Source of the DNA: Escherichia phage vB_EcoS_ESCO3
Reading direction: 5' to 3' (one strand)
Sequence record: OM386652.1
Length of the DNA: 59,956 nt
Shown here: positions 3,008-57,921 of the stretch, in pieces
Layout of the letters: the number at the start of each line of letters is the position of its first letter
Position numbering within the stretch: position 1 is the stretch's first letter
Position numbers and translations under genes: made by a program
Notes under the pieces: model-generated
What the model was told of the DNA's origin: nothing
Database searches by the model: none
The model's input: only the letters and a program-made list of their open reading frames with translations

Positions 3008-3533
3008 ATTCCTTATGTAATTTTGACCTAGTGAATTTCACAAAATTGTATGCTTTTTGCAAACCTTCCCAACTATATGGAAAACGTCTTCTTATTGTTT
3101 TGCCTTTAAATGTGATTCTAGCATCCCAATATGTATATCCACTAACGTCCAACTTTGAAATACCCTTTAGACCCGACGACCTATTATTACTTTGTACACA
3201 CCTATTACAATTATTCTCGGAATAGTTTGCAGCTCGCAAATTAGAAGGTCTATTATCTGTTTTTACTCTATTTATATGTTCAACGTGGGCTGGGTAATAC
3301 CCATGTGACATACAGAAACAGAGTCTATGAACTCTATAATTTTTATAAAGCAAGCCAACTTGCAGATAACCGTCCGAAGCTATACTACCAGCCGGAGAAC
3401 CTGCTATACAATTAGGAGCCCTTGTTATCCTGTTTATTAATTGTCCTGTATTCCTATCATAAATAAAGAATTTATCAAGTATTTCTTTACAAGGTTCATC
3501 AGACTGTATTTCAAAAGGTCTTGAGAGATCCAT
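2994..3533 (-). CDS. HNH homing endonuclease
   Basis: 179 aa. His/Asn-rich HNH core (YRVHRLCFCMSHGYYPAHVEHINRVKTDNRPSNLR) and a C-terminal basic DNA-binding-like region. AT-rich relative to its neighbours. Confidence 0.65.
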   Translation of the reverse strand: MDLSRPFEIQSDEPCKEILDKFFIYDRNTGQLINRITRAPNCIAGSPAGSIASDGYLQVGLLYKNYRVHRLCFCMSHGYYPAHVEHINRVKTDNRPSNLRAANYSENNCNRCVQSNNRSSGLKGISKLDVSGYTYWDARITFKGKTIRRRFPYSWEGLQKAYNFVKFTRSKLHKEFACD

Positions 3534-3541
3534 AAGTAACC

Positions 3542-4495
3542 TTACTCGTCAAATAAATCCTGGAGACGTTCGTTGAACTTCCCATTGTGGTTAGCAAGAA
3601 TCATAGCGTTGACCACACCATACGCCCATAAATTGTATGCAGCGCGTGATTCGTATATCGTTGAAAGTCGTTCGTATGTGAAACCTGACTCCTCTAAGTA
3701 GCGTAGAACGTTATTCTGTTCTATTTCTGAAAGGTTACAGATATGCTGCCCTTGATAGTGACGTGACGGAGACTTTTCAGACACCTGCATTGGACCCCAC
3801 TTAGGCGTCTCAATAGCACCAAACGCCGCAGATTGGATCCAGGAGGATGAGTCACAGGAGTACCACGGGTAACGCTCCATAAGTGGACGGGACGTAATAC
3901 CAAATCCATGGACTTTAATCTTAGCGCGTCCGCTACCGTCCACAAGGTGTTTATCCCATACCCTGTCCAACCATACTTGAAGTTGCTGCGTACTTGCTCC
4001 AACAAGACCACCGAGCGTAATGTACTCGTAGTTCCGTACATAATGGTCAAGATACTCAAAAGGTTCACCCGCGTGGAAGCATGGTAAAGGTCTTACACCT
4101 CTGGCTTCCATCTCTTCCTGGTTACGCCATGTCTGAAGTGGGTCTCCGATACCATCAAGTACGGACGCCATAAGCGAACCATCCTCTACACGGATGATAT
4201 CTATGTTTCGTTGGATGTAATCACAGTATTCTTTAACTGATAACGTAACTCCCAAAGTGTAAGCTGAGAACGCTCCGGAGTCGAGGAATATCTTGGCCCC
4301 ATCGGCACGCATGGCATCGACATAGGATTGCTTTCCAACATAGTGCCAGGATTCAAGAATGTTTGGAATATTCTCGACAACACGTTTTTCTTGTTCGTTG
4401 AGTTTAACATAGCGGTTCATTCCTGGTTTATAGCTGTTCGTATATACGGCAGCCATATAAATCTGAAAGGTATAGTTGATATCTTGTCTGTGCAT
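3542..4495 (-). CDS. dpdA: DpdA-like DNA-guanine transglycosylase (TGT superfamily)
   Basis: 317 aa. TGT-like motif FLDSGAFS; sits next to folE/queD/queC/queE. ATG at 4495 with an upstream AGGTGA ribosome-binding site on the minus strand. Confidence 0.7.
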   Translation of the reverse strand: MHRQDINYTFQIYMAAVYTNSYKPGMNRYVKLNEQEKRVVENIPNILESWHYVGKQSYVDAMRADGAKIFLDSGAFSAYTLGVTLSVKEYCDYIQRNIDIIRVEDGSLMASVLDGIGDPLQTWRNQEEMEARGVRPLPCFHAGEPFEYLDHYVRNYEYITLGGLVGASTQQLQVWLDRVWDKHLVDGSGRAKIKVHGFGITSRPLMERYPWYSCDSSSWIQSAAFGAIETPKWGPMQVSEKSPSRHYQGQHICNLSEIEQNNVLRYLEESGFTYERLSTIYESRAAYNLWAYGVVNAMILANHNGKFNERLQDLFDE

Positions 4496-4564: not shown

Positions 4565-5179
4565 TTACTTTTTACACGCTTCAAGAAATTCCCGACGCCA
4601 TGTGTCACCAGTCACGTCCGGTAATACATCATCACCCAATGCAGTACGTCCGCGGAATGCTTTAGTGATGGTTGAGCTGCCGCATACCTGTTTAACACCG
4701 CGCGACTCCATGCACATATGTTTTGCATCGATGTAAACACACACAGCTTTCGGGTCTAAGTGTTCCACGATAGCATCCGCAATCTGATTAGTCAGACGTT
4801 CTTGGACTTGCAAACGTCGAGCAAAAGCATCAACCACACGAGATAACTTACTAAGGCCAACAATTTTTCCATTCGGGACATACCCGACCACCGCATGACC
4901 AATAATAGGAGCCATATGATGCTCACAATGACTGTAGACAGGGATATCGCGGACGATGACCATTTCATTACAGTTTTCCCCACCATCTTCAAATGTCTTG
5001 AACAGGGATGCGATATCAACAGAATAACCTCCGAACCATGTAGCATAGGCCTTAGCTACACGATCTGGAGTTTCAACTAGACCTTCACGCAAGTCATCGC
5101 CACCTTCAATCAACTTTAAAATCTTTTCAATACTGTGCGAAATTTCTGCTCGGTTTGTCATCTTTGTAAATTCATTCAT
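4565..5179 (-). CDS. folE: GTP cyclohydrolase I
   Basis: 204 aa. FolE signature SHCEHHMAPIIG...GLSKLSRVVDAFARRLQVQERLTNQIA. AAGGAAA ribosome-binding site before the ATG. Confidence 0.88.
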   Translation of the reverse strand: MNEFTKMTNRAEISHSIEKILKLIEGGDDLREGLVETPDRVAKAYATWFGGYSVDIASLFKTFEDGGENCNEMVIVRDIPVYSHCEHHMAPIIGHAVVGYVPNGKIVGLSKLSRVVDAFARRLQVQERLTNQIADAIVEHLDPKAVCVYIDAKHMCMESRGVKQVCGSSTITKAFRGRTALGDDVLPDVTGDTWRREFLEACKK

Positions 5180-10798: not shown

Positions 10799-12757
10799 TT
10801 ACCAGTAAGAATAGGTTGATNAGNNGNANAANNGNAATACTGTCGTACGGGAATCAGTCTGCTCATCTTCATCAAACTTATTCGTATAACTGCCACCAAA
10901 CTGGGACAGACCATTCATTGCTGCAATTTGTACAACCGGACGTTCGTTTGTTGCTTCTTTCTTACCGAACTCACTACCGTCATAACAACTATTCAACACT
11001 TCGGGGAACTTACCCTTCAAGTTGACATAAATGTGCGTCGGTACACGAAGCTGGCTGACCACATTGAGGGCTTCGTCAATGTTAGCTGGGATTGCCAAGC
11101 TGCAATGCTCGCGCCACCAGTTACGCGCTTTCTTACCTGCAAAGCCAGTATGGAACAGGCAGATGTATTGTTGAATAGTTTGTGAGCCACAAAGATAATC
11201 AACACGAAGTGTCGGTGGCTTAGAACGGTCACCCCTGTTCTCGTGACGATAGTAACTCACCATATCAACTTTCAACACTTCAGTAACTGGTAAATCATTC
11301 TTGATAATAGCTTTCGTACTTGCACTCGCCATCAGTTTCTTCTCAAAAGTAAACTCATGACCGCAATAACCAGCACGACACGCTTTATTATTTGTAATGG
11401 TATAACCTAATCCTTGTAGATAGAGTATTTCTTCATGAGACATGCTGCTTGTGTCGAATGGTTTTAACCCACCACAGTAGCGAACTGACGCATGGTTCCA
11501 TGTCTTACATACCGGGCATTCTTTGACAGGTGCAGCGGATTTTCCTTTCTGTCCTGGACGCTTAGGAATTACAGGGTCGTTAATAGGCCCAAGACGTCTC
11601 GTATTGCCTGCGTAATCCAATACAAGACAGTTCTGTTTGTGCGAAGCCGAGATAGCTTGCAAACGACCTTCCGTTGTGGTCAGATCAAAACCATCAGCAT
11701 AATCAGGTCGAGTACCACGTCCAAGCATTTGAACCCATAGGCGGGAAGATTGAGACGGTCGCATACCAATTATTAAGTCAAGACCCGGATGGTCAAAACC
11801 TGTCGTTAATACGTTGTTGTTCGCTATTGCCTGCAAACGACCAGCTTTAAAGTCAATAAGGTACTGGTCACGCAAGGCTTTCGGTGTATCACCAGTTACA
11901 ACTTCACAACTAATACCGCGCTCATTGAGATAGTCTTTGACATCTTTTGCATGGTCTACACCAGCGCAAAAGATAAGCCAACTCATTCTATTCTCTTCTT
12001 CCGCAATACTAATTGCATCATCTAATAAATGGCGCGTTACATCAGGGTCATTTACAACCTTCTGAAGTTCACTTTCAATGAACTCACCGCCTCGAGTATG
12101 AACACCACTTACATCATACTCTTTCTTTGTTTTACGTGGTACTAACGGAACCAGATAACCTTCATCAATGAACCAGTTGAAGCACTCTACGGTACACGCG
12201 TTAAATACAATTTCATCAAATAGAGCGTTAGGTGCATAATCATCCTTGATAATAGAACCAAAACCAAGACGCCAACTTGTAGCAGTGAGACCGATAATCT
12301 TTAGATATGGATTCTTTTCACGAATCTGCGCAAAGAACTTCTGATAACTTGTTTGCTGATTTGGACTAATAAGGTCACATTCGTCAACTATAATAATATC
12401 AACGTCCTCAAAGTATTTAGCTTGTTTTGCAACAGACTGAATACCTGCGAACGTTATCATTGCGTTCTTATCTTTGCGACCCATACCAGCACTATAAATA
12501 CCAGTCGGTGCTTCAGGCCACAACTTCTTGAATTTATCGTGGTTCTGGTCTATCAATTCTTTTACGTGAGTAATTACCATCATGCGGGTACTACCCCAAT
12601 TATCATGAATTGTCTTTAATAGACCAGCAATTACAAGGGACTTACCAGTCCCTGTAGGCAACAAGATAACAGGATTTCCTGACTTTTCACCATGCTTGAT
12701 GAAATAGCGCAATGTACTATTTACAGCTTCTTGCTGATAATCACGTAGTTTGAACAT
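10799..12757 (-). CDS. SF2 DNA helicase (DEAD/DEAH-box type) with C-terminal Cys-rich region
   Basis: 652 aa. Walker A LLPTGTGKS, DExD box IIVDECDL, arginine finger QMLGRGTRP. The 3' end of the gene spans ambiguous bases (N at 10821-10835), so the C-terminus is uncertain. Confidence 0.7.
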   Translation of the reverse strand: MFKLRDYQQEAVNSTLRYFIKHGEKSGNPVILLPTGTGKSLVIAGLLKTIHDNWGSTRMMVITHVKELIDQNHDKFKKLWPEAPTGIYSAGMGRKDKNAMITFAGIQSVAKQAKYFEDVDIIIVDECDLISPNQQTSYQKFFAQIREKNPYLKIIGLTATSWRLGFGSIIKDDYAPNALFDEIVFNACTVECFNWFIDEGYLVPLVPRKTKKEYDVSGVHTRGGEFIESELQKVVNDPDVTRHLLDDAISIAEEENRMSWLIFCAGVDHAKDVKDYLNERGISCEVVTGDTPKALRDQYLIDFKAGRLQAIANNNVLTTGFDHPGLDLIIGMRPSQSSRLWVQMLGRGTRPDYADGFDLTTTEGRLQAISASHKQNCLVLDYAGNTRRLGPINDPVIPKRPGQKGKSAAPVKECPVCKTWNHASVRYCGGLKPFDTSSMSHEEILYLQGLGYTITNNKACRAGYCGHEFTFEKKLMASASTKAIIKNDLPVTEVLKVDMVSYYRHENRGDRSKPPTLRVDYLCGSQTIQQYICLFHTGFAGKKARNWWREHCSLAIPANIDEALNVVSQLRVPTHIYVNLKGKFPEVLNSCYDGSEFGKKEATNERPVVQIAAMNGLSQFGGSYTNKFDEDEQTDSRTTVXXXXXXSTYSYW

Positions 12758-19148: not shown

Positions 19149-19424
19149 TCATACCGTACATTTTTGCCAATGGCCCATAGAAAATGACAGCGAAGTGCAG
19201 ACAACTTCCAACCCGTTATCATCACGCACCACGGGCAAAGCTAGGCCGCTGCGGGCGTTATGTACAGTGCGGTGTACTCTATACACAGAGTTATGCGTAA
19301 AGCGCCGCGTATTCGCGTTTGTGCAGCGTAATAACGCTCCGATATGTACAAGTGGAGCAGGCATAGTGAAGCCAATCATTAGATCCTTCTCTTTCTTATT
19401 AGGCTGGCGTACAGTTACATTCAT
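19149..19424 (-). CDS. hypothetical protein
   Basis: 91-aa ORF whose start overlaps the stop of the small HTH ORF. Confidence 0.4.
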   Translation of the reverse strand: MNVTVRQPNKKEKDLMIGFTMPAPLVHIGALLRCTNANTRRFTHNSVYRVHRTVHNARSGLALPVVRDDNGLEVVCTSLSFSMGHWQKCTV

Positions 19425-19600
19425 TGTGTCGTCCCCTCATTTAAAGATTCCAGGCGCTCACCTAACAAAATGAGCGATTTAATTTGATGCGGTTTCTTAC
19501 CAAGATGTTCAGCAATGTGGTTATAAGTAAAACCTTTCTCCCGCATACGATAAGCAGTAATAGCGGCATTGCGATTGCGGATATCGGTTTTCTTACTCAT
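19421..19600 (-). CDS. small helix-turn-helix DNA-binding protein (59 aa, below the ORF-track cutoff)
   Basis: Hand-translated as MSKKTDIRNRNAAITAYRMREKGFTYNHIAEHLGKKPHQIKSLILLGERLESLNEGTTQ. AAGGAGAG ribosome-binding site about 10 nt upstream. Stop overlaps the start of the next gene. Confidence 0.35.
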   Translation of the reverse strand: MSKKTDIRNRNAAITAYRMREKGFTYNHIAEHLGKKPHQIKSLILLGERLESLNEGTTQ

Positions 19601-19905: not shown

Positions 19906-20147
19906 TAGTGTAGATTCTCTTTAGGTTGTTCTTCGCTCGTCATAAGATGAGCTAATACGCTGCATGTGTTTGATTTCTGCCAGGCTTTCTCAATTTCATC
20001 TAACGAGGATTCTGGTTTACATAAGCGATAGGCTTCCATGAAGGAATTCTGGGCTGCTTCAATGATTGCCAGAGACACTAACACTCTTTCGTCTATCATC
20101 GTCATCATTTCTTCACATTTATCACACATATTATTTCTCCAACTCAA
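19905..20147 (-). CDS. hypothetical protein (Cys-containing, small)
   Basis: 80-aa ORF; start/stop overlap with neighbours. Confidence 0.4.
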   Translation of the reverse strand: MSWRNNMCDKCEEMMTMIDERVLVSLAIIEAAQNSFMEAYRLCKPESSLDEIEKAWQKSNTCSVLAHLMTSEEQPKENLH

Positions 20148-20352
20148 TAATGTTTAGAATAATAACAACATCAAAGGAATTTGATTCTTTAAGGTGTTGA
20201 ACAATACCTTCAATCGTGTCCCTGCTAATATCCGGAGCCTTTACAAATACATGCCCAAATCCTGGGGATATCATGTGACCTTTGTGATAACTATAAGATA
20301 CGAAGAACTCCCTCGTCTTTTGTTCACAAACTACTAATTCTTTATCTGTCAT
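20131..20352 (-). CDS. hypothetical protein
   Basis: 73-aa ORF in the leftward block. Confidence 0.4.
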   Translation of the reverse strand: MTDKELVVCEQKTREFFVSYSYHKGHMISPGFGHVFVKAPDISRDTIEGIVQHLKESNSFDVVIILNIIELEK

Positions 20353-21194: not shown

Positions 21195-21222
21195 ATGGGC
21201 GCATATAGCGCCCATTTTTTTT
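21195..21222 (+). terminator. rho-independent terminator
   Basis: 8-bp stem ATGGGCGC / GCGCCCAT with loop ATATA, followed by a T8 run. Confidence 0.65.
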
Positions 21223-23770
21223 ATAGCTTAATAATCTTCTCCATGCGTTCGATATCCACTAAATAACACTTCATCCTCGGTGGTACAAAATCAGGACCGA
21301 ATAAACTTGAGAAGTCCATAGGCCTCATTTCAGCAAGAACTTCCATAGACATCAGACCATAAATTGTATTGTCTATGACCTGCAATATGTTGTCGTTTCT
21401 TGTCTGCTTGAACGCTTTAAATTGCCTACAATAAGTACATAAATCACTCCGTGTAACTATAAACGAGTCCTTAAACATTGGGAATTTATCATACACATAA
21501 GCCTTCACTTCCCCGTCCAAGAACCTTTTTATAGTCGCGAGCATTATCTTCTCACGGCTTGTACTGTCTGTAGACCCAATTTGCCCACTATTACGCTTCT
21601 CTAGGAAACGCTCGTTACCCTGATCGATAAATGACTCAGCCCAACGATAATGTTCCATAGTAACAACGGGTCGTTCACTGTTATCCGCAACAGCAAGAAG
21701 AGAAGCTATACGCAATACCTTCAACGCCTTCCTTGTGTACATCTGACGAATTACTTCGTCTTGCACCTGCTCACCATCATTGCCGCTGTTCAGGAACTTC
21801 GCAACAACATTATCAAGATTATCAAACGCTTCGTGTACCTCTGCTTCCATTTCAACATAACACGGAGCAGTCCCTGACATAATGCGCACAGCTTGTTTAT
21901 AGATAGCTCCAATAGTGCGCAGAATTGCTTCTGGATATTCCAGGAGCATACTCTTATTCATCAACGGGCGGTTAGCTGTACATTCCCATGCGATAATACG
22001 GGACATGAAGCCACTAGACATCATACGGTCATCCACGTTCCCGTAAAATTCATCTGGTGTCGTTTCACCTGCAAAACTATACGCCTTGACCTTACCGCCA
22101 GCAGTCGTATTATCTTTACTAGAGTGCTTTGAACCGCCAGAGAAAGCATAGAAATGCCCCTTGTCATAAAGGGAAAGCATTTCATCCATAATGTCTTTAG
22201 CTTTACCGACTTCCATCTTACCGTTACGGAAAAACGCACCGACTTCAGTCTTATAGTTAATGGATGAGCCACAAGACATAACGGATGTATCCATTATGAC
22301 GTCCTTGCGCAATGCAGCATCGGACGCATAGGTACTTGTATCTAAGACACGTTCAATACCAAATATCTGCTGGCCATCTTGACCGCCATAATTGGATACT
22401 TGAGAAAGAATAGTTTCAATGTTAGAGCGAAACGCTTCTTTACCAATACCAGAACGCGCAATTAATACAAAGTAGTTATTCAGACCACTTCGTGTGACTG
22501 TGTTCCACGCCTTACCGCACATACCACTAAATAAAGCAAGAGCAGACAGAATACTAATGTCTTTAATAGGCAACAAGCTCGCTTTATACATGTTACGCGC
22601 AACCTCACCCATAAAGCCCGGAGGCCAAGCCAAACCGTCTGCCTGCTCTTCAGTGTAATTGCCATCTGTGGTCAACACTTCTTCAGGTGGGCGTTCTGGT
22701 GTAGTTGCTTGACGTAGTTTTTCCGTGCGCTCTATAGCTGCATTAACGTTATTCTGAACTATCTGCATAAGTCCCATAGATTTAACATGGGCATCATAGC
22801 GATAGTTGCGAATCATTCTATCCAGGTGATACGGACGTTTGATTTTTTCACCAGGCAGACGACGGGAATCATCGTAACGACTACTCATTGGTGAATACAT
22901 GAACAGACGTCTTACCTGGAAATTGTACTTACTCTTAAAGCAAAGAAAGTCAATTAATGCAAACTCTGCTTCAGACTGAGAAGGGAAACAACGTTCGCCA
23001 ATAGAAGTATCAACTTCTTCAGCTCTCCAACGACCTTCCCATAGCTGCTTAAACAATGTTCCGTTTTCTTGTTCGCACAACTGAATATAGACATCCTGGT
23101 CTTCCATTGCATATGGGTCGTTACTAAAATCTTCTTCAGTAAGTTCCAGCATTTGGAAGCCGTCTGACTCATTAATCTCACTCATCTCAGACATAAGTTG
23201 ATGAATGAGATTAGCGATATACCCTTCGCTTTCACTGCCTGGAGCACCAGACACAGTGCGCGGAGTAATATCCCAGTGATCGCCTGTACAGATAATAAAA
23301 CGATACTGTGAATACACTTCCACACCATCACGGCGCTTACCAGCCTGAGGGATGGAATAAATCCATGTGTGCAACCCATCACCGCTTCTGGAAATTTCCG
23401 TATAGCTATGGAACGATTCAACAATCTTCTTATATCGCTCACCAGCAACTTTCTTTTCCATTTCAGACATGGTATCTTTAATGTCCATGTCGATACAACA
23501 GAACGGGTCACTTGGAAGTAGATAGAAACCTAAACGCAAGTTATGGCCAATCTCGTTATAATAACGAACGCAGCGTTCAGCATCTTCAAAAGACATAAGT
23601 AAATGCAGGTTAGACGGTTTCTTATCGTTACCGTCTTTACGAAGTGGGACCATATCCCCTAAATCATCGTCCCATACATAAGGTTGTTTTTCTGATGATG
23701 TACCCGGATGGAAACCGCAGACAGCCCACTGTTCGTATTGTTTAATTTCTTGAGGAAAAAGTTCCAGCAT
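21221..23770 (-). CDS. putative DNA primase (AEP primase-polymerase domain) with C-terminal NTPase-like region
   Basis: 849 aa. N-terminal AEP-like motifs CCIDMDIKD (DxD) and SRSGDGLHTW (SGxGxH); later a P-loop-like ARSGIGKEA. Domain assignment is by eye. Confidence 0.5.
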   Translation of the reverse strand: MLELFPQEIKQYEQWAVCGFHPGTSSEKQPYVWDDDLGDMVPLRKDGNDKKPSNLHLLMSFEDAERCVRYYNEIGHNLRLGFYLLPSDPFCCIDMDIKDTMSEMEKKVAGERYKKIVESFHSYTEISRSGDGLHTWIYSIPQAGKRRDGVEVYSQYRFIICTGDHWDITPRTVSGAPGSESEGYIANLIHQLMSEMSEINESDGFQMLELTEEDFSNDPYAMEDQDVYIQLCEQENGTLFKQLWEGRWRAEEVDTSIGERCFPSQSEAEFALIDFLCFKSKYNFQVRRLFMYSPMSSRYDDSRRLPGEKIKRPYHLDRMIRNYRYDAHVKSMGLMQIVQNNVNAAIERTEKLRQATTPERPPEEVLTTDGNYTEEQADGLAWPPGFMGEVARNMYKASLLPIKDISILSALALFSGMCGKAWNTVTRSGLNNYFVLIARSGIGKEAFRSNIETILSQVSNYGGQDGQQIFGIERVLDTSTYASDAALRKDVIMDTSVMSCGSSINYKTEVGAFFRNGKMEVGKAKDIMDEMLSLYDKGHFYAFSGGSKHSSKDNTTAGGKVKAYSFAGETTPDEFYGNVDDRMMSSGFMSRIIAWECTANRPLMNKSMLLEYPEAILRTIGAIYKQAVRIMSGTAPCYVEMEAEVHEAFDNLDNVVAKFLNSGNDGEQVQDEVIRQMYTRKALKVLRIASLLAVADNSERPVVTMEHYRWAESFIDQGNERFLEKRNSGQIGSTDSTSREKIMLATIKRFLDGEVKAYVYDKFPMFKDSFIVTRSDLCTYCRQFKAFKQTRNDNILQVIDNTIYGLMSMEVLAEMRPMDFSSLFGPDFVPPRMKCYLVDIERMEKIIKL

Positions 23771-26613: not shown

Positions 26614-27589
26614 AACCTCACCCTTGATAATAATAAATCGACTGATTTTGAAATTCAGTTGCCGGTTTATGTTTATTTTTACGCAGTGTGTTTTGCAATG
26701 CAATATTGATATATTTTGTCTTTGTATTGCAATGTTTTTGTATTGCAAAAATTACAACAGTCTGAAGGTGAGAAATTGTACATTTATAAAGATCGGTGAA
26801 AAAATGCACAATTTATAAAGATGCCGCAACATACGAAACGGCGAAGCGAAGTGTATGAAAAATAAGGGAAAATTTTGAGGATTGGGAGGTTTGTATGGGT
26901 TTATATTATTTATAAAGGGGTCCCGTAGGGGTCGTCAGTAGACAACTCAAAAACAAAAAATCTTTATAAAATTTATATAAATACACACATACACACACTT
27001 TTACCTTATTTTTCATGCACTTACCCCCTTTCATTTCGTACATTAAGCGACTATATATGAGCAATATGACATATATTTGTTGCGCAACGACTGTGTGTTT
27101 TCTAACCAATCGAAAGATTGCTTTATATACGTCCGCGCGTCTAACACAAAAGAAAAGTGGATTGCAAGCGATTTTTGCTGAGGTAACTCTCGAAGTGAAA
27201 GCGATTTGCGAGTTTGAAATTTTGTAGCCCGAAAACGATTCTATTTTATGGTATAAATGTCGGATTTTTCGGTGAAAGCGAGCTTTTTGGTGAGGTTGGG
27301 TGGCTGGGAACGGTGTAACTGGTAGCCCATAAAGCGAAAATAGCCGCGAAAACGGGGCACGCAGCGCGATTAAATGGTTGGATCAGTGTAAGGGTGGCGG
27401 TGAGGGGCGAAAATGCCGCAAAATCGCTTACAGGGATGCAGGGAGTGGATCGCTGTAAGGGCGTATAAGGCGATTAAATTGGAGTCTATGGTAATGTATG
27501 GAAGAAGGATTCAGGTTCTTAGAGCGCGAATGGTGGAGCTATGGGTGAGGAATATGTGGTCAGCAGGGTAGCGCGGGAGGTGGTGCGGG
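26614..27589. promoter_or_regulatory. large non-coding control region with multiple short direct repeats
   Basis: About 1 kb with no ORF of 60 aa or more in the track. Direct repeats TTTGTATTGCAA (26721-26732, 26737-26748), ATTTATAAAGAT (26782-26793, 26811-26822; further TTTATAAA copies near 26907 and 26961), GCGATTAAAT (about 27365 and 27470) and TGTAAGGG (twice). Plus strand is strongly purine-rich from about 27280 to 27600. Confidence 0.5.
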
Positions 27590-27629
27590 TACAAAAACGA
27601 AAGCGCCCCGTTGGACTTCAACAGGGCGC
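27590..27629 (-). terminator. rho-independent terminator for the leftward early operon
   Basis: Inverted repeat GCGCCCCGTTG / CAACAGGGCGC (one mismatch), which on the minus-strand transcript is followed by UUUCGUUUUUGU. Lies just downstream of the stop of gene 27653..27901. Confidence 0.65.
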
Positions 27630-27652
27630 GGACTGTATAATGCAGTTAGAAG

Positions 27653-27901
27653 TTATTTACTAGTTAATAATACCGCCCAGGTATTATCTGGAAGCGTACC
27701 AACTCCAAGTATCTTAAACTGAAGTGACTTGTTTTGTATGTTGTAGTTGTCGAGTAACTCCTGGGCAGCGGCAGCGGCGTTCGCTTCACCGCTCAGGTTG
27801 TAGTCGTTTGCAGTTATTGCACACATACCGAGGCCGACTGCTTTGAAGCGCATACCTTTGGATTGAGTCGGTGCCAGTGCTTTGACATGGATAGCGTTCA
27901 T
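27653..27901 (-). CDS. hypothetical small early protein (family B, copy 1)
   Basis: 82 aa. Paralogous to 28431..28676: both share a central AAA.EL segment and a C-terminal G..LPD motif. Confidence 0.45.
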   Translation of the reverse strand: MNAIHVKALAPTQSKGMRFKAVGLGMCAITANDYNLSGEANAAAAAQELLDNYNIQNKSLQFKILGVGTLPDNTWAVLLTSK

Positions 27902-27930
27902 ATTATTTATCTCCGTTACAATTTGAAAGG

Positions 27931-28188
27931 TTAGCAGTTTTTTAACATGTTAATGAAGCCCGCCAGCGTGGACGCTGTTGCAACCAGGCGACCCATAGTA
28001 TGCAGTTCGGCGTGAACTTTACCGTCGTCGAATACAGTTAAATAAACGTTAAGACCATTGCAACGGACGCGATATTTGCGCGAGTTATTATCGAAAGTTT
28101 CTAGCTCTGCGGTGATAGTCGCAAGATTAGCTATACGTTTGCCGATAATGCGGCGAGTGATAGTGGACTGGTTTAATACTGTAGACAT
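27931..28188 (-). CDS. hypothetical small early protein (family A, copy 1)
   Basis: 85 aa. N-terminal motif STITRRIIGKRIANL is shared with 29502..29807 (SQITKRIIGKRLHQL). Confidence 0.45.
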   Translation of the reverse strand: MSTVLNQSTITRRIIGKRIANLATITAELETFDNNSRKYRVRCNGLNVYLTVFDDGKVHAELHTMGRLVATASTLAGFINMLKNC

Positions 28189-28430
28189 AATAATTTCCTC
28201 TGTTAACTATGCGAAGTGCATATTATTGCCCACTGTTACTATGGGCAATGTATATGTCACTCAGCGGACACATATTCTAACGCTTCTGATAGTGTAGCGA
28301 AGTGACCATCACTCATCAGATTAATAGCGTACTCAAGTTGATCTCGGGTCAGGTTGCGAAACTTGTTGCGGATGTGATAGCAACGACCGCGATAAATAAC
28401 CTGGAAATAATTGCGTTCCATAATTATCCC

Positions 28431-28676
28431 TTAAGCAACGATGAACGCATAACCGCTTTGATCCGGGAGCTCACCGCCGGCAACAATCTCAAATTCAACG
28501 CCCGCTTTATCGTTGAACTTTTTGATAAGCTCTTCCGCTGCGGCGCGGTGGTTGCCGTAAACACCCAAATCGTCACGCCATGTGATAGTCAAGGAGCCGT
28601 TCCAGCCTGTTGCTTTTACGCGCGGGGCGCGAGCGGCAGTCGGGTTCATGAATTTTGTGATGATAGCTTGAGCCAT
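28431..28676 (-). CDS. hypothetical small early protein (family B, copy 2)
   Basis: 81 aa; paralog of 27653..27901. Confidence 0.45.
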   Translation of the reverse strand: MAQAIITKFMNPTAARAPRVKATGWNGSLTITWRDDLGVYGNHRAAAEELIKKFNDKAGVEFEIVAGGELPDQSGYAFIVA

Positions 28677-28681
28677 GATAA

Positions 28682-28900
28682 TTACTCCGGTAAAATTACA
28701 GTGACGTTAATATTTGCAATGCGAGCGCACTCGCGGAAACCTTTTACATAAGCATCCATTTCATCATAGGATGCGAAAGTTGCGTCCGGGACTGGTCCGT
28801 TGTTAATATTCACACAATATTCGTGTTCGTCCAGGTCTACCCAACAATTCAGAACTATAGTTCCCATATTATTTGCCCTCCGTATAGTACAGACCCGCAA
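28682..28900 (-). CDS. hypothetical protein
   Basis: 72-aa ORF. Confidence 0.4.
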   Translation of the reverse strand: MRVCTIRRANNMGTIVLNCWVDLDEHEYCVNINNGPVPDATFASYDEMDAYVKGFRECARIANINVTVILPE

Positions 28901-28945
28901 CTATTGGAGCTCCGAATACCAAGAACGCTAATAAGTAGAACATAA

Positions 28946-29425
28946 TTAGTTGCCCCCTTTATTGTTGAGCCCGTTGAATTTACGCCATGCGTAGAATTCA
29001 ATCGTTGCATTATTAATATTCCAACCATTAGCTTTCGCAAGGTCACGGACGTTACCAATAGTTGGCACACCATCAGGCAACATATTATCCAGAGCGTTCC
29101 AAACGTCTGCGCATTTACCTTTAATCGGACGACGAACCCCGTTGCGCGTTTCGCTGCGCGCCTTGCTCTTGGCGGGAGCGACCGGAGCTTGTTGTGTGGT
29201 CACTTCCACGACAGTCGCTTTATCAGCTTCGACCAGATCGTTGGCTGCCTTATTAACCGCGCCTTCGCTGAACCAGTAGCGGCCACCGTCTTCCATCGGC
29301 TCCTGGTGAATAAAGCTATTTGCTGTCGCTGTGTCTACGTCCAGAACCTTTTTCAAGGCACGGCGAGCGTTAGACATGTTGGTGAAAAAGCGAGCATCTT
29401 TCGCTACGCGAGTGATAGTTGCCAT
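28946..29425 (-). CDS. hypothetical early protein
   Basis: Start placed at the internal ATG at 29425 (MATITRVAK); the track ORF starts at 29440. Confidence 0.45.
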   Translation of the reverse strand: MATITRVAKDARFFTNMSNARRALKKVLDVDTATANSFIHQEPMEDGGRYWFSEGAVNKAANDLVEADKATVVEVTTQQAPVAPAKSKARSETRNGVRRPIKGKCADVWNALDNMLPDGVPTIGNVRDLAKANGWNINNATIEFYAWRKFNGLNNKGGN

Positions 29426-29501
29426 TGTAAATATCTCCATGTTGTTCTAGCGGATTGCTAGTGGGAGCCCACTGTGACAATGGGCAACCATTAGCACGCT
29501 A

Positions 29502-29807
29502 TTATTGTTGAATAGCTTTAGCTATCATTGTGATGAAGCAGAACACAGACCAAANGCTATTCGCTTGGCATACTGGGCGACCATACATTACGCTATAAGA
29601 GCTGACAGTGCCGTCTTCGTTAATGCGAACGTATAACGCGGTGCTGGAATATTTTTCGTTGCCCGGGAGCATTACCAGATACTCATCGAAATCCCAATCC
29701 CCGTCAACCTTTTCCGCTGTAAGGCCCAGCTGATGCAGGCGCTTGCCGATAATGCGCTTAGTAATCTGAGATTGGGACATGGAACGCGGTAAGTAGATAA
29801 TGGACAT
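29502..29807 (-). CDS. hypothetical small early protein (family A, copy 2)
   Basis: Start placed at the ATG at 29807 (MSIIYLPRS) with a GGGAG ribosome-binding site; the track ORF extends to 29861. Contains one ambiguous base (N at 29565). Confidence 0.45.
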   Translation of the reverse strand: MSIIYLPRSMSQSQITKRIIGKRLHQLGLTAEKVDGDWDFDEYLVMLPGNEKYSSTALYVRINEDGTVSSYSVMYGRPVCQANSXWSVFCFITMIAKAIQQ

Positions 29808-29882
29808 AATGCAATCTCCCTTCGGGTGAGGCGGGCGCGGAACCCGTGTCCCGCTTAACAACCCCCTTTACCCTACGCATTT

Positions 29883-29911
29883 ATAGTATGACAACAGGGT
29901 ATCAGATGCAA
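29883..29911 (-). promoter_or_regulatory. candidate sigma70-type early promoter (leftward)
   Basis: On the minus strand: -35 TTGCAT (29906-29911), 17-nt spacer, -10 TACTAT (29883-29888). Sits about 70 bp upstream of the first leftward gene. Confidence 0.4.
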
Positions 29912-29996
29912 CTATTATCTGCATTATTTTAGAACTTTTTTAGTTGTATTTCATAATAATAACATCCGGGACTATGTGGTAGATGGTGTGCCGGAA

Positions 29997-30059
29997 ATAC
30001 CAGGTAGCGCGAGCGTGCTGAAAATACCAGGTAACAGCACGCGCCGAACATACCAGGTA
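29997..30059. repeat. three direct repeats ATACCAGGTA (iteron-like)
   Basis: Copies at 29997-30006, 30024-30033 and 30050-30059, spaced 26-27 bp. The middle copy sits in the loop of the inverted repeat GCGTGCTG / CAGCACGC. Confidence 0.5.
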
Positions 30060-30177
30060 GCACATACATAAACAGCACATAGTGGGCAGGTCGATAGTAA
30101 CAGATGCAATTATACTGGACGGTACAGTATAGTCATGTAATAGATAGCATACTAATCAAATAAAAAATAATAACGCG

Positions 30178-30199
30178 TGTAACAATAAACAACGTTACA
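30178..30199. promoter_or_regulatory. palindromic operator-like site TGTAAC-N10-GTTACA
   Basis: Perfect 6-bp inverted-repeat half-sites; additional GTAACA half-sites nearby (30030-30240). A second TGTAAC-N6-GTTACA palindrome occurs at 57904-57921. Confidence 0.35.
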
Positions 30200-30362
30200 G
30201 TAGAGTACGCAACAGTCACATGACGTAACAATCACCTCACTGACGATCACTGGACGTTATAGTAACGCCGCGGGGCGGCTCTTAGATCTCTGCCAAGGAT
30301 TCATCGTTTGTAGATTATCTCGTCACTAGACACTTTATATCCTCACCTCACCTGCCCTATAT

Positions 30363-30391
30363 TGTTCGTATAGAATTAATTCCGTATATAA
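30363..30391 (+). promoter_or_regulatory. candidate sigma70-type promoter (rightward)
   Basis: -35 TTGTTC, 17-nt spacer, -10 TATATA; about 170 bp upstream of the first rightward gene. Confidence 0.3.
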
Positions 30392-30563
30392 ATACTCGAG
30401 ATCAGATTTACAAGATTCGGTTTCCTGTATGTGTAACTGATTTGCCGCACAAGATTTAAAGCACACGAGACAGCTAACTGTGGTTATTAATTGTTGCGGC
30501 CGGCTATGTTAATCAACTTGCGTATCCTGTTATAGTTATTCCGTTAACGTTAAAGGGGTTTAT

Positions 30564-30929
30564 ATGAACGAGAATATAGTTAAAGCCTGGTCTATCTTAC
30601 GACCACAGCTGAAAGACGATCGTGTCGCTTTTGTTTTATGTCCTGTTAACGAATATCGCCGGAAGCTCGAAGAAGTGTTGCGCGAGGATCCTGAGTTCGT
30701 TCGCTGTGTACAACTGTCGCGCGAGTCATCCGTGGTACAGTTTGATCGTTTCCACCTTCGTTTGGTTTCTCATCACAGAGCCTCGTATGAAGACACTGTT
30801 ACTCGTACGAGTGGCTTCCATTGTGATATTGCAATCCTTGACTGCAAACTGGACATTGGGCAGAAACAAAATTTATATAATCTCGCTCGTGAACGTCACG
30901 GTGAATTGTTAATTGTGGAAGTGCAATAA
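30564..30929 (+). CDS. hypothetical protein
   Basis: 121 aa; first gene of the rightward arm; GGGG ribosome-binding site before the ATG. Confidence 0.5.
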   Translation: MNENIVKAWSILRPQLKDDRVAFVLCPVNEYRRKLEEVLREDPEFVRCVQLSRESSVVQFDRFHLRLVSHHRASYEDTVTRTSGFHCDIAILDCKLDIGQKQNLYNLARERHGELLIVEVQ

Positions 30930-31267
30930 TGGCCAAAGATATCGTTATTCCGAAAATGTATTGCCAACTTCGTGATACTTTATTACAAAGTGGTTGGATT
31001 ATCAGTCACAGCGATGTAAATGACACTTATATCGTTCTTATACCACCTGAAGGAACCATATCCTGCATTTTGCACTACATGCCCGAAGCGAAAACGGTTT
31101 ATCCGAACGGGTCGTTCCTGCTTCGTTTGCGCTCCGATACATGGAAGATCCAGACGGATACTTGTGCAATTGACGAGAATACCAGTAAAGAGTTTATTCG
31201 CAAGCTAACTCAGCTGAATAAAATCTACCAGCATGTTAAATTTGATTTGTTTAAGGAAGTCTTCTAA
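30929..31267 (+). CDS. hypothetical protein
   Basis: 112 aa; start overlaps the upstream stop. Confidence 0.5.
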   Translation: MAKDIVIPKMYCQLRDTLLQSGWIISHSDVNDTYIVLIPPEGTISCILHYMPEAKTVYPNGSFLLRLRSDTWKIQTDTCAIDENTSKEFIRKLTQLNKIYQHVKFDLFKEVF

Positions 31268-31707
31268 TGATTACTATGAAAGATCGTATCGCCCATAAAA
31301 CTCAACCGACAATGATGTCTTGCATAGCTACTTGCTTGGCTATGCTTATTGATAAAGACCCGAAAGATGTGGACCAAGAATTTAGCGGTAAATATATCCG
31401 TGGACATATTGATGTTGCTAGTTATCTATATCGATACGGTATCTTTGCACAACCACATGTCACCGCTGGTATGCACCAAATCCGACCTGGGCGCTTGTAT
31501 CTTGCGACTGTACCTTCTTTGCAGTTGCCTGGGCTTTTCCATCAGATCATTATTGACGCTCGTTTTGACGGTGTGACCGTATACGACCCAGCGAAAGGTC
31601 TGGAAGGGAAACAATACTATTCCTATGACCACATTGCAGAAGAAAACGAGCTGGCGTATCCTTTGCGGTCTTTCTTGATTGATTACGAAATTATATTACC
31701 GGAGTGA
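31267..31707 (+). CDS. putative papain-fold cysteine peptidase (C39-like)
   Basis: 146 aa. KTQPTMMSCIATCLAML resembles the Q...C(G)xxCLAM active-site region of C39 peptidases; downstream HQIIIDARFDG supplies candidate His/Asp residues. Confidence 0.45.
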   Translation: MITMKDRIAHKTQPTMMSCIATCLAMLIDKDPKDVDQEFSGKYIRGHIDVASYLYRYGIFAQPHVTAGMHQIRPGRLYLATVPSLQLPGLFHQIIIDARFDGVTVYDPAKGLEGKQYYSYDHIAEENELAYPLRSFLIDYEIILPE

Positions 31708-31710
31708 TTC

Positions 31711-32064
31711 ATGAGCTTGCAACGTTTTGACAATGCAGAACTCGCGTGTGAATTTGCAAAGCGCAAGTTTGCTAAAACAGGTACGCCGCGATGCGTGCAC
31801 GCGGCTATTGGGCAAAATGGGGCAAAGTATTGGTACGTTGGTACAGTAGCTCAGATCAAGCGAAGATTCGCGACTACGCTCGAAATGCGCCGGCTTGGGT
31901 CCCCTACACTTGTACGAAACAGGCACTTGGATAAAGAGGAAATTTATCAATTTCTTAGGAATTACACTGGTAAAGAGAATAGATTTCAGGTTGCAGCGAA
32001 AGAATTTAATATCGGTCTTTCTACTGCTTATAAAATTTATCACATATATGGGCGTTTAATATGA
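31711..32064 (+). CDS. hypothetical protein with C-terminal HTH-like segment
   Basis: 117 aa; segment FQVAAKEFNIGLSTAYKIYH looks like a helix-turn-helix. Confidence 0.4.
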   Translation: MSLQRFDNAELACEFAKRKFAKTGTPRCVHAAIGQNGAKYWYVGTVAQIKRRFATTLEMRRLGSPTLVRNRHLDKEEIYQFLRNYTGKENRFQVAAKEFNIGLSTAYKIYHIYGRLI

Positions 32065-57803: not shown

Positions 57804-57837
57804 AAAGCGCCTCTAGTATGGCGCTTTTATTTTTTAT
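57804..57837 (+). terminator. rho-independent terminator
   Basis: Stem AAAGCGCC / GGCGCTTT with an 8-nt loop, followed by a long T run. Confidence 0.7.
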
Positions 57838-57903
57838 AATCAATATTTACAAAACAATTTACGCTTTACCTTGCGATTCCCCACTTTTGCTATATGCTTG
57901 CTC

Positions 57904-57921
57904 TGTAACGTAAGAGTTACA
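57904..57921. promoter_or_regulatory. palindromic operator-like site TGTAAC-N6-GTTACA
   Basis: Perfect inverted repeat in the 150-bp intergenic region upstream of gene 57952..58662; same half-sites as the palindrome at 30178-30199. Confidence 0.35.

Follow-up and report, generated by a model that had tools for sequence, protein, structure and literature searches.

The divergent intergenic region at positions 29808-30563 of Escherichia phage vB_EcoS_ESCO3 (OM386652.1; the single-copy, permuted assembly of 59,956 bp, analysed over its full length, is called the window) carries three direct repeats of the 10-mer ATACCAGGTA. Comparison with related phages indicated that this repeat array is conserved and accessory, and that it most likely consists of protein-binding sites rather than of a packaging signal or an essential origin. 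By sequence similarity, the interval is the divergent region known from 9g-like siphoviruses (subfamily Queuovirinae), because megablast with 29400-31400 matched 17 phage records, every one of the genus Nonagvirus at 90-96% identity (9g, JenP1, JenP2, JenK1, BRET, HdSG1, HdK1 and SE1 among them), and a more sensitive blastn search with the intergenic region alone returned the identical 17 records and no further match. It is very probably a 9g-type control region that contains a boundary of the terminal repeat, set by the terminase, between 30281 and 30282. The interval would thus combine the early/late control region of a 9g-like siphovirus with one physical genome end.

The early arm with the replication and deazaguanine genes lies to the left of the region on the minus strand, and the lysis and morphogenesis arm lies to the right on the plus strand. 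No open reading frame (ORF) of at least 50 aa was found within 29808-30563, in agreement with a preliminary description of the window, made from its sequence, which had reported about 700 bp of ORF-free DNA and called it a divergent control region. The latter designation fits the published description of 9g, in whose homologous intergenic region oppositely oriented promoters were predicted, by BPROM only (Kulikov et al., 2014, PMC4276943).

Structure and distribution of the repeat array

The exact copies of ATACCAGGTA are located at 29997-30006, 30024-30033 and 30050-30059, at a spacing of 27 and 26 bp, as described before, and no further exact copy was present in the 59,956 bp. Tandem Repeats Finder independently called an array at 29988-30062 with a period of 26, 2.8 copies, a score of 90 and the consensus unit GTGCCGAAAATACCAGGTAGCAGCAC. 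Therefore, the true unit is about 26 bp long and directional (GTGYGCCGRAA..ACCAGGKRG), a feature absent from the preliminary description, and the 10-mer is merely its best-conserved core. In the window each core forms a short dyad, TACC-N-GGTA. Control by Dcm methylation (CCWGG), comparable to the Dam sites in P1 pac, was considered and rejected, as CCWGG is common genome-wide (102 sites vs 66 expected). Resemblances to FadR, NanR and sigma-54 motifs were considered as well, but the spacing does not fit.

The conservation of the array was assessed in an alignment of 13 Nonagvirus genomes, and of 15 once three IMG/VR contigs had been added. These contigs were recovered by scanning IMG/VR for two spaced copies of the 10-mer; the remaining matches were coding tandem repeats in unrelated giant-virus or large contigs. 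A motif search of the genome and its relatives, which the preliminary description had proposed, found the repeats retained in 15 of the 16 Nonagvirus genomes, the exception being JenP1, and found the unit also in the Seuratvirus phages CAjan and Greed. The sole changes among the array-bearing genomes were one G after repeat 1 (BRET) and a C-to-G exchange inside repeat 1 of one contig. Variable columns were significantly rarer in the cores than in the two spacers (2/30 vs 12/33, Fisher p = 0.006).

In the sister genus Seuratvirus, the array unit is present in the divergent region of CAjan (four copies, spaced 27, 37 and 35 bp) and Greed (three copies, spaced 35 and 35 bp), in a single orientation and directly upstream of the conserved AT-rich/GTAGACA block in front of the first rightward gene. 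The exact 19-mer GTGTGCCGGAAATACCAGG is common to the window array, CAjan and Greed; one Seuratvirus copy reads GTGTGCCGGAAATACCAGGGGCGCGCGAG vs GTGTGCCGGAAATACCAGGTAGCGCGAG for repeat 1 of the window, the two being identical over the 19-mer. Otherwise blastn detected no similarity between Nonagvirus and Seuratvirus in the divergent region. The invariant core across the genera is ACCAGG. The GGTA half of the dyad is replaced by GGGG or GGTG in the Seuratvirus copies (ACCAGGGG or ACCAGGTG), so that the family as a whole does not share the dyad symmetry of the window. A variant cassette with GGACCAG/CTGGTCC elements was found in ECP2304, SeppeHuegi and SA126VB. A single ACCAGG copy is kept in ECP2304 and SeppeHuegi, the cassette of ECP2304 being degenerate and carrying two CTGGTCC in addition. 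The cassette is cleanly deleted in Seuratvirus yong3, Seurat has an unrelated divergent region without the array, and the array is also missing from Klebsiella phage Kpn2-P2.

In JenP1, the segment equivalent to about 29895-30093 of the window, comprising the AT-rich block next to the array and the array itself, is replaced by about 700 bp of unrelated DNA which carries a 102-aa ORF, and homology to the window resumes at GATAGTAAC. No TACCNGGTA was present in the 47 kb of JenP1 examined. The cut-site region of JenP1 is intact, and its TerS, primase-helicase and DNA polymerase are 99.5%, 99.6% and 99.8% identical to those of the window, respectively. Judged from these comparisons, the array is a discrete module with a copy number of 0-4, always placed between the gene arms and inside the terminal repeat, and it is dispensable because JenP1, yong3, Seurat and Kpn2-P2 do without it.

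Genome end and terminal repeat

The physical ends of several relatives have been mapped. In 9g, 91 reads start and 23 end at nt 28243, from which a physical end with a terminal repeat was inferred (Kulikov et al., 2014, PMC4276943). The cut at nt 28243 was confirmed by run-off sequencing, in which an estimated 33-50% of the templates were cut; the same study identified, ahead of the cut, two 21-bp repeats sharing the core SRYCRCGGGRCG, estimated a terminal redundancy of ~3.0-3.2 kb, proposed a pac site and headful packaging for 9g, and noted that JenP1 carries the same pac sequence as 9g (Tsai et al., 2017, PMC5567051). The assemblies of HdSG1 and HdK1 were linearised where most reads stopped abruptly (PMC6563267).

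By alignment, nt 28243 of 9g corresponds to position 30281 of the window, and the records of HdSG1 and HdK1 both end in ...GTAACGCCGCGGGGCGGCTC, the last base of which is again 30281. By homology with these three phages, the genome end, which the preliminary description had suggested mapping, is placed inside the interval between 30281 and 30282, where it had been missed. This position is 222 bp to the right of the last ATACCAGGTA repeat. The flank of the cut is well conserved: only 2 of the 61 columns at 30240-30300 vary, the 31 nt to the left of the cut contain one difference from 9g (T30251 here, G in 9g), and the 20 nt to the right are identical. The cores of both 21-bp repeats of 9g are present in front of the cut, and, with one mismatch allowed, SRYCRCGGGRCG was found nowhere else in the genome. 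The terminase would thus be expected to cut after C30281, by homology to the mapped relatives.

The deposited records of HdSG1 (63,595 bp) and HdK1 (64,059 bp) include direct terminal repeats, for which the offsets between duplicated genes give a length of 3363 bp in HdSG1, where the stretches checked were identical, and of 3367 bp in HdK1. The left end of HdSG1 (TTTATAAAGGGGTC...) maps to 26909 in the window, and the left ends of the two phages are 3 nt apart. In most Nonagvirus records (9g, JenP1, JenP2, JenK1, BRET and the window) the sequence is single-copy and arbitrarily permuted, and the terminal repeat is hidden. The repeat predicted for the window comprises, from left to right, some 740 bp of non-coding DNA, a group of seven small leftward genes (27653-29807) and the first 474 bp of the control region, in which the array lies. 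The virion DNA would most likely run from 26909 to 30281, through the unique part, and again from 26909 to 30281, so that the terminal repeat would hold the small leftward early operon together with the left two-thirds of the control region. The genome probably has an exact terminal repeat rather than headful ends, because a cut fraction of 50% is expected where one copy of the junction is internal and one is terminal, and because the record of ECP2304, from the sister genus, has an exact terminal repeat of 3695 bp (100% identity). The cut fraction of 33-50% and the redundancy of about 3 kb reported for 9g (Tsai et al., 2017) suit an exact repeat of ~3.37 kb, as deposited for HdSG1 and HdK1, equally well or better.

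Both boundaries of the repeat are accompanied by a common sequence. The sole other copy of the CGTCACTAGACA box next to the right boundary is CGTCAGTAGACA at 26933-26944, 24 bp inside the left boundary. The genome contains just two copies of the 12-mer CGTCASTAGACA, both on one strand, and every Nonagvirus locus examined retains them at the two sites. A terminase element common to the boundaries is one possible role, a promoter element of the -35 type (TAGACA) another. In PD328, SP8 and SE1 a third CGTCASTAGACA copy, likewise preceded by TTTATAAA, follows some 155 bp to the right, and Kpn2-P2 has one copy, in the divergent region. The motif ATTTATAAAG occurs four times in the genome (0.22 expected); three copies cluster at 26782, 26811 and 26908, and the one at 26908-26917 contains the predicted left genome end (TTTATAAAGG...). 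A 28-bp tandem repeat of two copies spans 26767-26822. In ECP2304, the left end (1-20) starts inside the palindrome GGAATAA-T-TTATTCC, the sequence GGTAAT-GGTAAT-GC-ATTACC at 3417-3438 precedes the right end by about 260-280 bp, and each end is followed by YYTGATAGWA.

Possible functions of the array

We tentatively regard the array as a regulatory protein-binding array, a reading that draws on sequence comparison. The three ATACCAGGTA copies would be the cores of the 26-27 bp unit, and the units together would form a cis-acting array of binding sites for a sequence-specific protein of the phage or the host. The two BPROM promoters of 9g correspond to about 29928-29959 (plus) and about 30125-30159 (minus) in the window, with the array between them. 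The AT-rich block, which corresponds to the rightward one, hardly varies within Nonagvirus, and Kpn2-P2 shares its left edge (29899-29920). The candidate promoter at 30136-30109 points left, which would place the array in the 5' leader of the early operon borne by the terminal repeat. The array would accordingly lie between, or just downstream of, divergent promoters and could tune early-leftward against rightward transcription, like an operator or roadblock array. As an accessory module, it would pass between genera, and a phage could lose it and survive; it would be neither the recognition site of the terminase nor an indispensable origin. An accessory operator or roadblock is suggested because of the place of the array and its non-lethal loss.

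Several points weigh against a regulatory role. All promoters considered here are consensus matches or BPROM predictions. At a spacing of 26-27 bp (2.5 helical turns), adjacent sites face opposite sides of the helix, an uncommon arrangement for cooperative operators. Variable columns are not significantly rarer in the cores than in the rest of 29895-30281 (2/30 vs 48/324, p = 0.28), and therefore the argument from conservation within the genus rests on the contrast with the spacers. Sharing of the unit across genera could mean recent horizontal transfer and not long-term selection, and an AT-rich block beside direct repeats is the classic layout of an iteron origin. Finally, no phage protein co-occurring with the array was found among the candidates compared.

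Partners of the array were sought among proteins that vanish or differ in JenP1. The candidates rejected were an 81-aa protein (28431-28676), which is also divergent or absent in array-bearing phages, an 85-aa protein (27931-28188), which is absent from 9g, and a 73-aa protein (20131-20352), which is present in only a few array-bearing phages. TerS and the primase-helicase do not vary with the array either, both being nearly identical in JenP1. Searches of Pfam and PHROGs with ten neighbouring proteins and the JenP1 insert ORF returned only families of unknown function and sub-threshold helix-turn-helix matches; the latter concern proteins of 59 aa (19421-19600) and 117 aa (31711-32064), both of which are present in JenP1. 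The binder of the array could be a conserved phage protein or a host protein.

The preliminary description had considered the repeats compatible with a packaging (pac/cos) site or an origin. For the interval as a whole the first suggestion holds, as the cut maps between 30281 and 30282, but the repeats themselves are gone from JenP1, which has the same cut site. Were the three repeats TerS binding sites that direct the large terminase to a cut 222-284 bp further right, the nearness of the array to the mapped cut inside the interval would be accounted for, and repeated motifs beside a cut are typical of terminase recognition (lambda cosB, SPP1 pac, P1 pac). Nevertheless, the array is improbable as a packaging signal. 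JenP1 has no array, yet its cut-site region is identical and its TerS nearly so. In ECP2304 the divergent region with its degenerate cassette lies at 2392-2781, but the terminal repeat runs on to 3695, some 1 kb to the right and past three plus-strand genes, and yong3 is without the cassette altogether. The repeats thus do not co-occur with the cognate terminase and the cut across relatives, as TerS recognition sites would, and the unit is near-identical between genera whose TerS are only 47% identical. What is conserved out to the Klebsiella relative is the block beside the cut (30172-30249), and not the array. Kpn2-P2, with a TerS of 61% identity and the same gene layout as the window, has this cut-adjacent block and short islands at 29899-29920 and 30376-30401 in common with the window. 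Within this block lie ATCACCTCACTGACGATCA and the left half of a TGTAAC palindrome, and it may be the true terminase recognition region. The near-cut sequences of ECP2304 (ACAGTCACAGAC...CCCGAGGGCCC/TTATCC, the slash marking the cut) and of the window (ACAGTCACATGAC...GGGGCGGCTC/TTAGATC) are alike. As for the origin, the three direct repeats do adjoin a 61-bp AT-rich block of 21% GC, as in an iteron origin, and could serve a phage initiator at a primary or auxiliary origin, with 29905-29965 as the unwinding element. The window also encodes a possible initiator, a fused primase-helicase (21221-23770; AEP-TOTE and DUF3987 matches), and the comparable alpha protein of P4 recognises origin iterons. 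Phages such as T7 and T4 have redundant origins that make the loss of one tolerable, and the loss of the array in some phages could be tolerated in the same way. Several observations, however, make an origin unlikely: JenP1 has neither the array nor the AT-rich block although its primase-helicase and polymerase are almost unchanged, scans with the consensus sequences of DnaA, IHF, Fis and CRP found no sites in the region, the cumulative GC skew has its minimum and sign change at ~26.5 kb and the skew is flat at 28-31.5 kb, and a copy number of 0-4 with a spacing of 26-37 bp between phages is atypical of phased iterons.

It is also conceivable that the array has no sequence-specific function and is a neutral remnant of slippage, duplication or recombination that is carried along by linkage. 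Insertions and replacements cluster in the region (a 95-aa gene, HNH genes, mosaic Seuratvirus regions), the array is dispensable, and its cores are not more conserved than the regional average. Against this, the cores are far less variable than the spacers, and several copies with the ACCAGG core have been kept in two genera without other detectable DNA similarity here, which makes a neutral remnant clearly unlikely. An RNA or DNA structure was considered as well, in which the self-complementary repeats fold into a long hairpin, either in a leader RNA (attenuator or put-like) or in single-stranded DNA. The 91-nt stretch 29985-30075 indeed folds stably, at -31.2 kcal/mol with z = -4.0 for the plus strand, and with z = -2.7 for the minus strand. 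The fold is scarcely credible as a functional element, however, as none of its 25 pairs has a compensatory change, several pairs are broken in 3-8 of 13 genomes, Rfam gave no match, and the GGGG or GGTG of Seuratvirus in place of GGTA would leave R1 and R3 without pairing. The GCGTGCTG/CAGCACGC hairpin described earlier does flank repeat 2 but is broken in many relatives; it was rejected together with the larger repeat fold, both being stable in the window without compensatory change across the 13 genomes. Scans for Rfam families and tRNAs gave no match. Of the two TGTAAC/GTTACA palindromes that had been reported, the one at 57904-57921 was found as described, and the one at 30178-30199 exists but is neither beyond chance (0.22 expected per genome; at least one in 20 of 100 shuffles) nor conserved (perfect in only 2 of 13 aligned Nonagvirus genomes, with 4 of 12 half-site columns variable). 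A single dimeric regulator that binds both and co-regulates the two loci had been proposed, and both palindromes are perfect and lie in promoter-proximal non-coding DNA. The different spacers of 10 and 6 bp mean that one dimeric regulator could not bind both palindromes in the same way; moreover, the half-sites of the first vary more than the background, TGTAAC is not enriched (48 found vs 39.5 +/- 6.5 expected), and the Klebsiella relative conserves only the left half. Such a common regulator is highly improbable. The TGTAAC palindromes and the hairpin would be incidental, because compensatory changes and conservation are lacking. The palindrome at 57904-57921 is located between a hairpin resembling an intrinsic terminator (~57806-57832) and the Gly-rich gene. 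The sequence 57806-57921 with this palindrome is identical in JenP1 and JenP2, where the whole region is 99-100% identical. Its half-sites and 6-bp spacing resemble a TyrR box (TGTAAA-N6-TTTACA).

A broader version of the regulatory reading is speculative and, as a whole, unlikely. In it, the ACCAGG unit would be a mobile cis-regulatory cassette of Nonagvirus and Seuratvirus, situated inside an exact repeat of ~3.4-3.7 kb that carries a T5-like pre-early operon twice per virion. By binding to the array, a conserved protein of the phage or the host would control the early-to-late switch and perhaps also the pseudolysogeny reported for 9g, and the repeat would be cut site-specifically at both of its CGTCASTAGACA-marked boundaries. 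Site-specific cuts at both boundaries, if true, would contradict the published headful model of 9g.

Features of the region and comparison with known systems

The features of the region are collected below.

Table. Coordinates of features in and around the divergent region of the window
Feature	Position	Strand	Basis or remark
Divergent intergenic region	29808..30563	both arms diverge	no ORF of at least 50 aa; homologous to 9g region annotated with divergent promoters
First gene, leftward early arm	29502-29807	minus
First gene, rightward arm	30564-30929	plus
AT-rich block, 21% GC	29905..29965		weak sigma-70-like hexamers: plus 29928-29957; minus 29954-29926
Tandem array, 2.8 copies of 26-27 bp directional unit	29988..30062	plus	Tandem Repeats Finder; ATACCAGGTA cores
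Best sigma-70-like match in region, ATGACT-16-TATAAT, 10/12	30109..30136	minus	consensus match; overlaps 9g BPROM leftward promoter
Conserved block just left of cut	30172..30249	plus	Kpn2-P2, 79 bp aligned, 71% identity, E 3e-9
TGTAAC-N10-GTTACA palindrome	30178..30199		present here, not conserved
12-bp cores (SRYCRCGGGRCG) of the 9g 21-bp repeats	30245..30277	plus	GATCACTGGACG 30245-30256, one mismatch; CGCCGCGGGGCG 30266-30277, exact
Predicted terminase cut, right boundary of direct terminal repeat	30281..30282		...GCGGGGCGGCTC/TTAGATC...; 9g nt 28243; HdSG1 and HdK1 record ends
Inferred direct terminal repeat, 3373 bp	26909..30281		homology with HdSG1 and HdK1 repeats
CGTCACTAGACA box	30321..30332	plus	39 bp outside right boundary
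Sigma-70-like match right of cut, TTTATA-18-TATATT	30334..30363	plus	consensus match; candidate rightward promoter, would be single-copy per genome
Second palindrome, TGTAAC-N6-GTTACA	57904..57921		upstream of Gly-rich gene; spacer 6 vs 10

At the left end of the terminal repeat, 26614-27652 is about 1 kb of non-coding DNA with the G-rich repeats GGTGAGG, GTAAGGG and GCGAAAA. The GC skew is very strongly positive at 27.0-27.9 kb (+0.3), and the genome-wide cumulative minimum lies at the left edge (~26.5 kb). Immediately beyond the annotated terminator (~27600-27630), a leftward transcript over 26614-27652 would run on through an extended C-rich tract. This stretch could be a Rho-loading region or an origin. 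The small genes of the terminal repeat belong to families of unknown function, and their presence and alleles are mosaic among Nonagvirus. They include two pairs of paralogues, 27653-27901 and 28431-28676 (both phrog_3199) as well as 27931-28188 and 29502-29807 (both phrog_13865). Ambiguous bases occur as scattered Ns at 10821-10835 and as an N at 29555, which gives an X in the first leftward gene (29502-29807).

To the right of the cut, an indel hot spot was found at about 30403-30487 of the window, corresponding to 3495-3782, 3536-4015 and 4632-4940 in loci L002, L004 and L013, respectively. A 95-aa membrane-protein gene is located to the right of the cut in 9g, JenP2, JenK1, SE1, HdSG1 and others, and is not found in the window, BRET and PD328. 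HdK1 has an HNH endonuclease gene at the hot spot, and the 102-aa ORF that JenP1 has in place of the array belongs to no known family; HNH genes at the region in HdK1 and JenP1 were counted among its insertions.

Members of the Queuovirinae (9g, CAjan, BASEL phages) have attracted study because of their 7-deazaguanine DNA and are also considered for phage therapy and engineering. For annotation and engineering, the genome end and the limits of an exact terminal repeat can be placed on this genome, and a conserved repeat array can be separated from the cut site. The natural array-minus variants JenP1 and yong3 provide a ready-made test of array function. The analysis refines a known locus and adds one undescribed cis-element; no concept is overturned.

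The locus with divergent promoters and a terminase cut is already described for 9g (PL-PR and pac; PMC4276943, PMC5567051). The window agrees with 9g in the locus itself, the cut sequence (GGACGTTATAGTAACGCCGCGGGGCGGCTC/TTAGATC), the 12-bp cores, the flanking genes and the predicted promoter positions, and differs in that it lacks the 95-aa gene which 9g has between the cut and the first rightward gene. A further difference concerns the mode of packaging, as headful ends with ~3 kb were proposed for 9g (Tsai et al., 2017), whereas the records of HdSG1, HdK1 and ECP2304 indicate an exact terminal repeat. The ATACCAGGTA array, the tandem ACCAGG unit and its presence in Seuratvirus are unmentioned in Kulikov et al. 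(2014) and Tsai et al. (2017), and a literature search on the repeat motif gave no relevant match.

Like the OR1-3 and OL1-3 operators of lambda, the array consists of three close putative sites between opposed early and late arms, and in the window its cores are short dyads. In contrast to lambda, the sites are spaced 26-27 rather than 23-24 bp, no repressor gene is adjacent, the units are directional, and their dyad is lost in the Seuratvirus copies; the 9g-type phage is lytic, and no integrase was found in it (PMC4276943). Iteron origins (lambda ori, P4 ori/crr, plasmid oriV) likewise have direct repeats of ~20-26 bp beside an AT-rich stretch, but unlike them the array of the window is dispensable, as JenP1 illustrates, has no host-factor boxes, is irregular in spacing and copy number and is not marked by a GC-skew signal. 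With R1-R3 of lambda cosB, pacL/pacR of SPP1 and the hexamers of P1 pac the array shares a repeated motif within a few hundred bp of a cut, but it does not co-occur with the terminase and the cut across relatives. For the terminal repeat, the closest counterpart considered is T5, whose 10-kb terminal repeat carries the pre-early operon. Both have an exact repeat of several kb, predicted in the case of the window, with a block of small genes that lack a known function and are read toward the genome end by promoters near the inner boundary; the repeat of the window is shorter (3.4 kb vs 10 kb), and no homology to T5 genes was seen. Compared with these systems, the array is an ordinary kind of element, a previously undescribed array of short direct repeats in a phage control region, and its role is probably regulatory.

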